Assembly (NCBI GenBank): GCA_963763775.1 | Contig: CAVXPZ010000003.1 | Location: forward strand, 448,001-512,000 | From: an uncultured Chloroflexia bacterium | GTDB taxonomy: Bacteria; Chloroflexota; Limnocylindria; Limnocylindrales; CSP1-4 | Direction: 5' to 3' | Length of the DNA: 64,000 nt | Part shown: one piece after another, positions 6,057 to 8,678 of the stretch | Position numbering within the stretch: the stretch's first letter is position 1 | Layout of the letters: each line of letters opens with the position of its first letter | The notes under the pieces: model-generated | What the model was told of the DNA's origin: nothing | Databases searched by the model: none | The model's input: only the letters and a program-made list of their open reading frames with translations | Made by a program: the position numbers and the translations under genes

Positions 6057-8678
6057 CTACTCGTGCCCACCGGGCAGGAGGGCCGACCCGTGGCCGTTCC
6101 CGTTCCCATGGGCGTGGCCGTGGCCGTTGCCGTTGGCGGCGACGCCCGACGGGATCCCGGCGACGGCCGCCGGGAGGACGGGGAGCATCCGGCTCGGGTC
6201 GAAGTGGCGGCCCTCGGCCGCGGCGGCGTCGGCCCACCCGCGTTCGCGGCGGATGTACGTGACCTCGGTCTCGCGGTCGATGGCGGCGATCGCCATGAGG
6301 TCGATCGTCGGCTCGGCGCGGCTCGTGTGCGCCAGCTCGATGTCGCCGCCGTCGCGCAGCGCGTCGTACGGGCACGCGTCCACGCAGATGCCGCAGAGGA
6401 TGCAGCGGCTCTCGTCGACCTCGTACTTCTGGAGCACGCGCGGCTTGGGCATGAGCGCGCCGGTCGGGCACGTCTCGGCGCAGCGACCGCACGACACGCA
6501 CGGGGTGTCGTTGAGGCTCATGTCGAGCGGGGTCGTGACGAGCGTGTCGAAGCCGATCCGCATGAAGTCGTAGCACGCGGCGCCGACCACCTCCGAGCAG
6601 ACCTGGGCGCAGCGGCCGCAGTCGATGCAGCGGGACGGCTCGCGGAGGATGAACGCGTGCGAGTCGTCGCGGACGTAGTCGTGGTTGATCCCGGTGAACC
6701 GGTTCTCGGTCACGCTTCGATAGCCGGCGCCCTGGTGGAACTGCGGCTCGAGCGTCTTGAGCGTCGTGCCGTACTCGATGCCGAGCCGTCGCAGGTCGCA
6801 GAACCCGATGGCCTCGCAGGTGCACTGCAGACAGCGCGTGGACTCCGCGACGGCCGCCTCGCGCGTGTACGGCAGCTCGTACTCCATGTAGTTGTGGTTG
6901 CGCTCCTCGGCCTCGAGCGCGGTCAGCCGGTAGCGCGGCTCCTTGACCTCCGCGGTGAACGGGACGATCGAGAGGAACTCGGGCTGCGGCTCGGCGAGCG
7001 TCTGGCGGGTCCGGATGGCCCCGAGGTCGAGCCCCTGGAGGAACGCGTCCACGGCGTACGCGGCGCGCCGGCCCTCGGCGATGGCCTGGACCACGGTCGC
7101 CGCGCCGATGCGCACGTCGCCGGTGCCGAAGACGCCGGCCCGGCCGGTCTCGAACGTCACCGCGTCCGCCTTGAGCCGGCGCTGCTTCGTGGCCTCCGGC
7201 CCCTCCGATCCAGGGCCGATCCAGGTGAGGTCCGGGCCCTGGCCGATGGCGAGGAGCACGCGGTCGCACGGGACGATGAACTCGGTGTCGGGCGCGGGCT
7301 CCGGCCGCCGCCGGCCCGAGGCGTCGGGCGCCCCGAGCTGCATCCGGATGAACTCGACGCCCGTCACGTTGCCGGCATCGTCCGTGACGACGCGGGTCGG
7401 GCCGGCCTGGAAGATGGCGGTCACGCCTTCCTCGATGGCCTCGTGGACCTCGCCCGACGCCGGCATGTCCTTCATGTCGCGCCGGTAGACGAGCGTGACC
7501 TCGCTGGCGCCCTGGCGGACGGACGTCCGCGAGCAGTCCATCGACGTGAACCCGCCGCCGATGACGACGACGCGCTTGCCCGCGTGGTCCGGATAGGGGA
7601 GGCCGAGCGTGGCGGTCCGCAGGTACTCGAGGCCGTCGAGGACCTCGGCGGCGTCCTCGCCCGGGATGCCCAGCTTGTTCGTGTCGTAGCAGCCGATGGC
7701 GACGACGACGGCATCGAAGCCCTGGTTCGTCAGGTCGTCGAGCGTGAACTCGGTACCGAGGCCCGCGTTGCAGACCATCTTGCCGCCGAGCCGGGTCACG
7801 GACTCGTACTCGGCCTCGAGGACCTCGACCTTGGGCAGGCGGTACTGCGGGATGCCGTAGCGGAGCATCCCGCCCGGGGCCGGGTCGCGCTCGAAGACGG
7901 TCACGTCGTGGCCCGACAGCAGCAGGTAGAAGGCCGCGGCCATCCCGGCCGGGCCGGAGCCGATGACCGCCGCGCGACGGCCCGTCGGCGCCTGGCGCTC
8001 GAACGGCAGCGGCGGATCGACGCCCTCGTCGAGCATCGCCTTGAGGACCTGGTCGCCCGCGTAGCGGTGGCTGTCGCGGATGGCGATCGCCTCGTCGACC
8101 TCGTCGCGCCGGCAGTGCTCCTCGCAGGGTGCCGGGCACACGCGACCCAGCACGGAGGGGAACGGGATCGTGCGCTTGAAGATCCGGGCGCTCTCGCGCC
8201 AGTCGGCCTCGGCGTTGGCCTTGAGGAAGCCCGGGATGTCGATGTGGCTCGGGCACTTGTTCTGGCAGGGCGGCAGGCAGTAGGCGTTGTGGTCGCTGAA
8301 GATCAGCTCGAGGTTCGTCCGGCGGAGGCGGCGGACCTCCTCGGTCTGGGTCTGGACCTTCATCTCGGGCTCGCAGACGCGCGAGCACGAGATCGGCGGG
8401 TTGTCCTCGCCCTCCACCTCGACGACGCACATCCGGCAGGCTCCGAAGCCCGGCAGCTTGGGCTCGTAGCACAGCGTCGGGATCTCGATCCCGTTGTCGC
8501 GGCAGACCTCGAGGATCGTCTGGCCCTCGAAGCCCTCGACGACACGGCCGTCGACCTCGATGCGGATCCGCGGCGACGACTGCGGACGCTGCGGCGAGCG
8601 CGTCTCGAGGAGCCGGTCGGCCAGCGATTCCGGCTCCGGCGTCAGGCGGCTGTCGGGGCGCGTCAGGAGGTCAGCCAT
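6057..8678 (-). CDS. StnC/NfnA-like Fe-S flavoprotein (NuoG N-terminal Fe-S domains with inserted GltD-like FAD/NAD(P)H domain) fused to the C-terminal half of NuoI
   Basis: ATG 8678 (MADLLTRP). [2Fe-2S] [15 protein letters not shown]...C; GltD-like [47 protein letters not shown]...[12 protein letters not shown]; then NuoI-like [23 protein letters not shown]...DIELA. Confidence 0.88.

Follow-up and report, generated by a model that had tools for sequence, protein, structure and literature searches.

How does a complex I whose operon encodes neither a canonical NuoG nor an intact NuoI receive its electrons? The question is raised by a 64,000-nucleotide stretch of a Limnocylindria genome (GenBank assembly GCA_963763775.1, contig CAVXPZ010000003.1, positions 448,001 to 512,000; here called the window), in which one gene of a nuo operon, here called gene X, encodes a fusion protein related to both NuoG and NfnA. 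An initial annotation of the window had proposed that a GltD-like FAD/NADPH domain is nested in this protein and that NADPH is oxidized there. After following up that proposal, we think it fairly probable that X is the NuoG equivalent of a variant proton-pumping complex I, and that the enzyme would act as an NAD(P)H:quinone oxidoreductase, using as its wire to quinone a branch that is a dead end in NfnA.

Gene X is read on the minus strand from an ATG at position 8678, eight bases past the TAA of the nuoF-like gene, to a last codon at 6060 and a stop at 6057 to 6059, and between 8678 and 6232 it has no insertion or deletion relative to the congener G010. The window has a G+C content of about 70% and contains long spurious open reading frames (ORFs) in all six frames, one of which is the plus-strand ORF at 6063 to 8759 that overlies gene X. 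A pseudogene was rejected, since the frame of X is intact and conserved. Pfam and NCBIfam searches bore out the domain order read by the initial annotation, namely a NuoG-type [2Fe-2S] domain, an interrupted His/Cys motif, a full GltD-like domain and a 2[4Fe-4S] domain (Table 1), and each of the strings that it had quoted is present: SDHNAYC (residues 128 to 134), GSGPAG (240 to 245), GGGFTSMD (374 to 381), VYRR (397 to 400) and CEAIGFCDL (621 to 629). At the interruption, the Pfam model NADH-G_4Fe-4S_3 matches residues 119 to 135 with profile positions 1 to 17 of 40 only (E = 4e-4, below cut-off), and the phmmer alignment to Thermus thermophilus Nqo3 begins at the resumed motif (X residues 617 to 780 on chain positions 117 to 274). 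A Pfam dicluster match covers residues 727 to 773. Profile searches of the 873-amino-acid protein found no molybdopterin or H-cluster domain, and both NCBIfam model TIGR01971 and the NuoI chains of the PDB agree with the earlier claim that the C-terminal half of NuoI takes its place. An AlphaFold2 model of X, built on a 50-sequence alignment, has a mean predicted local distance difference test score (pLDDT) of 76.9 and a predicted TM score of 0.75 and is confident over residues 35 to 745, with pLDDT mostly above 90 in the FAD/NADPH domain.

Other names for the protein did not hold. The best NCBIfam model on X is PRK12814 ("putative NADPH-dependent glutamate synthase small subunit"; residues 38 to 697, below cut-off). 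Fer4_20 and Pyr_redox_2 are present, but the GltD models score below their cut-offs and the operon has no gltB; we rejected a glutamate synthase subunit because GltB is missing and the GltD-like domain forms an internal part of a larger protein. Separate GltD-like paralogues, 38 to 41% identical, are encoded elsewhere in the genome. Some automatic names call X a formate dehydrogenase or hydrogenase subunit, which we also rejected because X has no catalytic domain. The protein ends in a Gly/His-rich tail that is found in the window's genus, is absent from the sister family f2 and from Thermoleophilia, and is possibly metal binding; the Thermoleophilia tails end instead in a conserved GW.W.P...D motif.

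A phmmer search of PDB chains placed three structures far above all others: NfnA of Caldicellulosiruptor saccharolyticus (9bov_A; E = 1e-159; X residues 38 to 769 on chain positions 4 to 699), StnC of Sporomusa ovata (8oh5_C; E = 7e-139; X residues 37 to 772 on 3 to 702) and NfnA of Thermococcus sibiricus (9n5u_A; E = 1.6e-134). Foldseek, queried with the AlphaFold2 model, returned the same three first, with query-normalized TM scores of 0.63 to 0.66, so the likeness to the StnC/NfnA layout noted at the outset is borne out by both methods. X is collinear with these proteins over residues 37 to 772, at 35 to 39% identity over about 720 aligned columns, and contains all of their elements in this span: the [2Fe-2S] domain, the His/Cys motif, the inserted NfnL/GltD-like Fe-S/FAD/NADPH domain, the second Cys motif and the 2x[4Fe-4S] domain. 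The YRR stretch of X, which the initial annotation had linked to NADPH, aligns to the LYRR or IYRR of the NADPH-using NfnA and StnC. A GltD domain nested in a NuoG-like N terminus is a known, structurally solved arrangement and is not new.

In the excerpts of the structure papers used here (PMC11829005, PMC10482914), electrons in NfnA and StnC are described as passing from FAD through two GltD-type clusters and a further [4Fe-4S] cluster to one cluster of the 2x[4Fe-4S] domain, and from there through the [2Fe-2S] cluster to the FMN-side cluster of subunit B. A side branch of two clusters leads into an inactive formate dehydrogenase-like (Fdh-like) domain, which is termed a nonfunctional evolutionary remnant; in the formate dehydrogenase FdsABG, according to the NfnABC structure paper, the three corresponding clusters form a functional wire. 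This C-terminal Fdh/NuoG-like domain is described as having its own [4Fe-4S] cluster and as mediating tetramer formation. X differs from NfnA and StnC in lacking the Fdh/molybdopterin-like C-terminal domain and its cluster, and half of NuoI occupies the place of the domain that ends the dead-end branch. X also differs in being encoded in a nuo operon, in having partner subunits that, in the window's lineage, lack the clusters defining the bifurcating core, and in one ligand of the cluster next to FAD: K170 of StnC, termed strictly conserved in the excerpted text of PMC10482914, aligns to H204. This His is present in 20 of 20 fused proteins and in the Ktedonobacteria, f27 and f8 forms, while the soluble homologue L100 has Lys.

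The alignment of X to NfnA and StnC stops just past the CxxCxxCxxxCP motif at residues 727 to 738. Twenty residues on, a third motif, C759-x2-C762-x2-C765-x3-C769-P, is followed by YDAL...ELA, with the same spacing in all complete orthologues listed, and this C terminus matches the NuoI chains of solved complex I, not Nfn (residues 750 to 802 on 8qby_I 94 to 146; Nqo9 89 to 124). The other half of NuoI begins the gene that we call IE, whose stop overlaps the nuoF start by one base. On the NuoI model TIGR01971 (121 positions), IE covers profile positions 1 to 62 and residues 747 to 789 of X cover positions 71 to 113; residues 9 to 73 of IE correspond to T. thermophilus Nqo9 6 to 68 and contain its sole motif, C56-x2-C59-x2-C62-x3-C66-P. 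Each cluster of a two-cluster ferredoxin is bound by three Cys of one motif plus a fourth supplied by the other motif, and therefore either NuoI half would be incomplete alone. An IE gene with exactly one NuoI motif is found upstream of X in 61 of the 66 loci having at least 2.9 kb of upstream sequence; the remaining five are all from Thermoleophilia, and in them the best IE match starts late or the motif differs. When we modeled residues 1 to 100 of IE with residues 742 to 840 of X and two [4Fe-4S] clusters, the predicted complex scored 0.21 relative to a mark of 0.32, a result that gives no verdict for or against binding. The nesting first described as GltD inside NuoG inside NuoI holds at the gene level, with the two NuoI halves on separate genes of one nuo operon.

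This operon is encoded on the minus strand throughout and extends from about 15010 to the start of the window in the order nuoA-B-C-D-H-IE-F-X-J-K-L-M-N, so that the Q- and P-module genes A, B, C, D, H, J, K, L, M and N are all together with X. The same order occurs in the clean relatives L017 and L096 and in the Thermoleophilia locus L078. Five genomes from the order were searched for other complex I genes: that of the window, two from the same genus and two from a sister family with small genomes. All five contain a single NuoD locus; none has a NuoG match (TIGR01973) over the cut-off of 470 bits, the best being 74 to 81 bits at the X locus; and none has an intact NuoI, the only matches being halves (profile positions 1 to 62 or 65 and 71 to 113 or 117) on IE and X. 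Thus, no complex I other than that of gene X was found in these five Limnocylindria genomes. PntB is also encoded in all five, and therefore X is not needed as the cell's transhydrogenase or NADPH maker.

The same NuoG model gave a molybdopterin-type match at C4:633120-634385 of G000, at the same place in G010 and G006, with one in-frame TGA in all three of these genus members, and this gene probably encodes a formate dehydrogenase with selenocysteine. At a distance of 9 to 10 kb from it (C4:643144-644093), there is a separate NuoG/HydA-like N-terminal domain.

We propose that a domesticated NADH/NADPH module of the NfnABC/StnABC type (the Bfu family) serves as the input of this complex in place of NuoEFG. 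The NuoI halves of IE and X would fold together into a two-cluster ferredoxin (N6a and N6b) that feeds N2 in NuoB. X would bind FAD and NADPH as NfnA and StnC do, hydride from NADPH would pass to the FAD of the GltD-like domain, and electrons would then travel by way of both GltD clusters and the His/Cys cluster, arriving at the first cluster of the 2x[4Fe-4S] domain. That cluster would be the junction of NADPH/FAD, NAD(H)/FMN and quinone. One branch from it would run through the [2Fe-2S] cluster to the FMN/NAD(H) site of the NuoF-like subunit, where NADH would enter or leave; the other, a dead end in soluble NfnA and StnC, would run through the second cluster of the same domain, the split NuoI and N2 to quinone. 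The initial annotation had NADPH as the donor; because a NuoF-like FMN subunit is also encoded, NADH is likely a second one.

Conservation of X is consistent with this path. In the 50-sequence alignment, the invariant residues include H130, C134, C138, C142, C181, C185, C189, C616, C619, C621 and C627, as well as C684-694, C727-737, C759, C762 and C769, and the four Cys of the [2Fe-2S] site are invariant in 50 of 50 sequences. The ligands of the His/Cys cluster may be H130/C134 combined with C621/C627, as the initial annotation would have it for one N5-like cluster, or the four Cys C616, C619, C621 and C627 by themselves. The FAD motif is invariant, and YRR is kept in all 13 Limnocylindria orthologues; in the window's lineage, conservation extends to the NADPH-site glycines and to each of the seven ligands of the two GltD clusters. 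Between families f1 and f2, X is 73 to 75% identical and NuoD is 75 to 77% identical, and the NuoF-like subunit has the lowest identity of the twelve proteins compared, 48 to 55%.

The partner subunits have changed more. In Thermoleophilia, the F subunit is a complete BfuB of 636 amino acids with an N-terminal [2Fe-2S] and a C-terminal 2x[4Fe-4S] domain; it aligns end to end with the solved B subunits 7t2r_B, 9bov_B, 9n5u_B and 8oh5_B (E = 2.6e-239 to 2.2e-227), compared to about 1e-114 for the best complex I NuoF, and IE keeps all four Cys of its [2Fe-2S] site. The Limnocylindria F subunit, at 419 to 442 amino acids, matches only the NfnB core (positions 159 to 521; 300 bits, relative to 237 bits for the best complex I NuoF) and keeps the GLRGRGGAGF and GEET motifs. 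At the cluster next to FMN, F of families f1, f2 and f3 has CGK(T/S/A)xPC in place of CGKCxPC, which leaves three of the four usual Cys, the second being missing (L015, L009, L017 and L096); an extra Cys lies five residues upstream of this motif in f1 and f2 but not in f3, and CGKCxPC is retained in Ktedonobacteria and Thermoleophilia. IE of f2 and f3 has lost two of the four [2Fe-2S] Cys, and IE of the window's genus and of the Ktedonobacteria type has lost the thioredoxin-like domain. What remains of the NuoE-like domain (residues 118 to 186, corresponding to NfnC 20 to 88, with an NCBIfam NuoE match) has NfnC and StnA as its best solved relatives (E = 2e-9 and 7e-9), compared to 5e-3 for the 24-kDa subunit of complex I. 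Judged by this relatedness, the input module is derived from a Bfu-type NfnABC and not from the NuoEFG of complex I, which corrects the initial annotation. By the criteria given in the excerpts of Schut et al. (2022, PMC9304861) and of the NfnABC papers, the window's form cannot be bifurcating; the Thermoleophilia form might be. X has kept all its ligands while the NuoF-like and NuoE-like subunits have lost clusters, which fits an input site on X that matters.

All 31 genomes of the order that were searched have an ortholog of X, and together with the invariant ligands this means that the architecture is not due to chance. The best 120 matches in a large protein collection are 83 to 92% identical to X, and the named ones are mostly "FAD-dependent oxidoreductase" from metagenome-assembled genomes (MAGs) of Candidatus Limnocylindrales or Chloroflexota. 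Among cluster representatives, the next full-length relatives are 35 to 45% identical, mostly 1000 to 1400 amino acids long, and NfnA/StnC-like. Of nine representatives of middle length that we checked, seven are truncated long forms with an Fdh-like start, one has neither feature, and one (P0137, 816 amino acids) has the NuoI half. A search with P0137 yielded 76 loci, nearly all from Thermoleophilia/Actinomycetota MAGs, with the gene order of the window. Of 301 Chloroflexota genomes, 70 had a match at E of 1e-110 or less, and by our count of the matches listed, 60 extend to residue 782 of X or beyond; these fused proteins come from the window's two families (18), a third family of the class (12) and five further families (30). 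Close homologues of one further family bear the names of cultured Ktedonobacteria (Dictyobacter, Tengunoibacter, Ktedonobacter and Thermogemmatispora). In these Ktedonobacteria genomes there is, in addition, a canonical nuo operon whose NuoI is intact, together with a second NuoD that is of the window's type.

To place the fused proteins, we built a maximum-likelihood tree of the part of X before the NuoI half (IQ-TREE, LG+G4, quick search, SH-aLRT only, root not inferred) from hand-picked rows (5 + 14 + 6 loci, plus the first 42 of the representatives with 1000 or more amino acids). The 24 fused proteins separate from 43 long NfnA/StnC-like proteins on a branch with support of 100. Of the fused proteins, those from Chloroflexota cluster with one another (97), adjacent to those from Thermoleophilia; earlier versions of the tree agreed. 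This topology supports, but does not prove, a single origin of the fusion of the NuoI half to X. Identities between Limnocylindria and Thermoleophilia are 44% for NuoD, 33 to 40% for NuoH and 50 to 54% for NuoL/M, values that do not decide whether the whole operon was transferred between phyla.

Two genomes of a Ktedonobacteria family contain two copies of X side by side, 44 to 47% identical to the window protein (G060:C38:36559-41397 and G262:C1:909940-914750). At another locus of such a family, L097, a gene for a 1128-amino-acid primase/helicase-like protein (NrS-1 polymerase HBD, D5_N and DUF5906; positions 3878 to 7261) lies near nuoB-IE-F-X and is suggestive of a mobile element. An isocitrate/isopropylmalate-dehydrogenase-family gene beside the L097 cluster was dropped as a functional hint, as it recurs only in L095 (two of six new loci).

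The copy in the window carries extra single bases relative to G010, which is 82% identical at the DNA level over 15 kb: near 11674 and 11088 in nuoH, near 9557, 9150 and 9095 in nuoF, and near 4126 in nuoL (all approximate). The three in nuoF add up to one codon, so that 460 bases are out of frame before the frame is restored. The NuoF match is contiguous in nine other genus members, and nuoH and nuoL are intact in L017. A short contig from public run X1, which matches the window over 150 bases apart from a single letter, is missing a base at 9554, weak evidence from one contig at a depth of 2.7. No public sequencing run contained more than 0.17 of the sampled words. The genome comprises 4 contigs with an estimated completeness of 87%. 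We regard the insertions in nuoF, nuoH and nuoL as probably long-read assembly errors.

Table 1. Genes of the nuo operon and parts of gene X, with positions in the window, in the order of transcription
Feature	Position	Strand	Basis or remark
nuoA	14620..15010 (approximate start)	minus	six-frame search, C terminus
nuoB	13886-14626	minus	Oxidored_q6
nuoC	13332 to ~13880	minus	
nuoD	12099..13316	minus	Pfam Complex1_49kDa; sole NuoD locus in genome
nuoH	10705..12057	minus	frameshifted near 11674 and 11088
IE, N-terminal NuoI half fused to helical N-domain of NuoE/NfnC-like protein	10018..10701	minus	228 aa; two genes upstream of X
nuoF-like gene (BfuB core only)	8687..10015	minus	three 1-base insertions near 9557, 9150, 9095
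Gene X, NuoG/NfnA-like fusion protein	6057..8678	minus	873 aa + stop; ORF and translation
X: NuoG/HydA-type [2Fe-2S] domain (C70, C81, C84, C98)	8343..8570	minus	aa 37-112; Pfam Fer2_4, E 3.5e-21
X: start of N5-type motif (H130-x3-C134), continuing into C138-x3-C142-P	8253..8324	minus	aa 119-142
X: GltD/DPD-type Fe-S domain (C181, C185, C189; H204)	8040..8279	minus	aa 134-213; Pfam Fer4_20
X: FAD and NAD(P)H Rossmann domains, VYRR at end of listed motifs	7071..7973	minus	aa 236-536; Pfam Pyr_redox_2, E 6.8e-28; aligned to NfnA/StnC
X: C616-x2-C619-x-C621-x5-C627, cluster motif resuming past GltD insert	6792..6845	minus	aa 612-629
X: HydA/NuoG-type 2x[4Fe-4S] domain (C684-694, C727-737)	6453..6650	minus	aa 677-742; Pfam Fer4_Nqo3 (below cut-off), NfnA/StnC alignment
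X: C-terminal half of NuoI (C759, C762, C765, C769-P, then PYDAL...ELA)	6243..6440	minus	aa 747-812
X: Gly/His-rich tail	6060..6176	minus	aa 835-873; translation
nuoJ	5460-6050	minus	
nuoK	5152-5460	minus	
nuoL	~3160-5152	minus	frameshift near 4126
nuoM	~1637-3160	minus	
nuoN	3-1466	minus	runs off window

Two further observations concern the operon itself. Directly upstream of nuoA is a gene for a 399-amino-acid protein of the Methyltransf_28 family (PF02636; 15604 to 16800, minus strand; E = 2e-54), which we take to be the family of the mitochondrial complex I assembly factor NDUFAF7/MidA. In L017, from the small-genome sister family, the presumed NuoB (2293 to 3369) has 358 amino acids, also matched the window's nuoA-nuoB region in one alignment, and may be fused or overextended; NuoH has 446 amino acids (5132 to 6472), and the NuoD model matched in two pieces (2 to 289 and 316 to 386), i.e., with an insert. 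Both NuoB and NuoH of L017 are long for these subunits.

Several points weigh against our proposal. The AlphaFold2 model of X is of low confidence over residues 748 to 873. If the single-base insertions in nuoF, nuoH and nuoL are real mutations, this strain has a nonfunctional complex. A complex I that oxidizes NADPH while a transhydrogenase forms NADPH at the expense of the proton motive force would need control against a futile cycle. In Ktedonobacteria, nuoB-IE-F-X is a four-gene cluster apart from the other nuo genes, so that its membership of one complex with the membrane arm is there something that we infer. Lastly, YRR is missing from 9 of the 60 Thermoleophilia orthologues that cover the site (a subclade; five confirmed by eye), and 18 residues of the NADPH domain are deleted in L019 and P0137; the NADPH site is therefore dispensable in some lineages. 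In this subclade (L019, L020, L021, L081 and P0137), GGG has also changed to GDG while the cluster ligands and the NuoI half are retained, and the nucleotide site seems to be decaying.

These losses would fit a complex in which the GltD-like domain is a structural leftover and whose sole entry for electrons is the FMN site of the NuoF-like subunit, making it an ordinary NADH:quinone oxidoreductase, and retained inactive domains have a precedent in StnC and NfnA, according to the excerpts of PMC11829005 and PMC10482914. We consider this unlikely, given the conserved FAD motif, NADPH-site glycines, YRR and seven GltD-cluster ligands of the window's lineage, the greater conservation of X than of the NuoF-like subunit, and the Cys that the latter itself is missing from its only cluster.

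The same complex might instead run in reverse, with the proton motive force driving electrons from quinol through N2 and the split NuoI to NADP+ (and/or NAD+) and so making NADPH for biosynthesis. The architecture is silent on direction, complex I and Nfn/Stn enzymes are reversible in principle, and StnABC is described in the excerpts of PMC10482914 as running both ways. This direction is quite unlikely in our judgment: PntB, found in all five genomes, is part of the usual NADPH maker driven by the proton motive force, and the only complex I found in Limnocylindria must carry forward respiration too, if complex I is used.

It is very improbable that IE, F and X make up a soluble Nfn-like transhydrogenase of their own that is merely encoded in the nuo operon, with the 11 other Nuo subunits making a complex I dependent on ferredoxin or another donor, since, although the three are closest to soluble NfnCBA/StnABC and stand apart from the membrane-arm genes in Ktedonobacteria, an 11-subunit complex needs a NuoI, which the five Limnocylindria genomes searched encode only as the two halves on IE and X, the Ktedonobacteria cluster has its own nuoB, and the tetramer-forming Fdh-like domain of StnC is gone from X.

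As the NuoG equivalent of an NAD(P)H-accepting complex I, X resembles canonical NuoG/Nqo3 in its [2Fe-2S] domain, His-containing motif and ferredoxin-like domain, and it would occupy the same position in the electron chain. It differs in scoring far below the NuoG cut-off, in having a flavin/NADPH domain, in keeping both clusters of the 2x[4Fe-4S] domain, in lacking the large C-terminal domain, and in being covalently joined to half of NuoI, so that the hand-over to NuoI is probably from a cluster other than N5. A related system may be compared from the excerpts of Schut et al. (2022, PMC9304861), who predicted "Nuo-Bfu," a 14-subunit complex I with a BfuABC input module, the usual nuoA-N order and menaquinone as a third substrate, in Deferribacteres, Proteobacteria, Planctomycetes and Nitrospirae. 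The system of X likewise has a Bfu-type module feeding a complex I membrane arm, and its Thermoleophilia relatives have a full BfuB and a cluster-bearing BfuC. In contrast to the system of X, Nuo-Bfu is described in those excerpts without an NADPH-binding domain and without a split NuoI, and no Nuo type from Actinobacteria or Chloroflexi appears there. In mbx-like operons, a gltD-related flavoprotein replaces NuoI in hydrogenase-derived Mbx-type complexes (Degli Esposti 2015, PMC4758237, from an excerpt). These also place a GltD-family NAD(P)H site on a complex I-like membrane machine, as in X, but, comparing by description only, the GltD-like protein is a separate subunit there, while the GltD domain of X sits within a NuoG-like protein, and NuoI persists in two pieces. 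In excerpts of Tang et al. (2011, PMC3150298) and Spero et al. (2015, PMC4453560), Chloroflexi complex I gene sets lacking only nuoG were remarked on, and X could be the "missing NuoG" of these genome papers. For Chloroflexus aurantiacus, Tang et al. list a nuoF separately from the second nuo cluster.

A full-text literature search, with subscription journals outside its scope, found no description of a complex I with a GltD/NfnL-type NADPH domain in NuoG or with a split NuoI. New in the system of X are the half-NuoI tail in place of the molybdopterin-like tail, the other half of NuoI on a NuoE-like protein, and the setting inside a nuo operon. We tentatively suggest, as a possibility that falls somewhat short of probable, that this is a second, independently assembled full-size complex I, in which an nfnCBA-like operon was inserted into the nuoI of an 11-subunit ancestor, splitting NuoI and turning the dead-end branch of NfnA into a wire to quinone. 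If so, it would be a proton pump that takes NADPH directly, and Limnocylindria, which are very abundant in soil and fresh water, would have it as their main or sole complex I; the Thermoleophilia form, which keeps a full bifurcating core, may link NADH, NADPH, ferredoxin and quinone within a single enzyme.

Complex I is specific for NADH in textbooks, and these cells probably have a main proton pump that can take electrons from NADPH in addition to NADH. Direct respiration of NADPH by a proton pump would alter models of redox balance in these organisms, among them members of groups that are dominant in many soils and lakes. The split NuoI would be an unusual docking of a soluble redox module onto a membrane machine, and it points to more than one acquisition of the complex I input module. 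With Thermogemmatispora, Dictyobacter, Ktedonobacter and Tengunoibacter among the carriers, to judge by the names given to close homologues, cultured Ktedonobacteria make this idea testable at the bench now.

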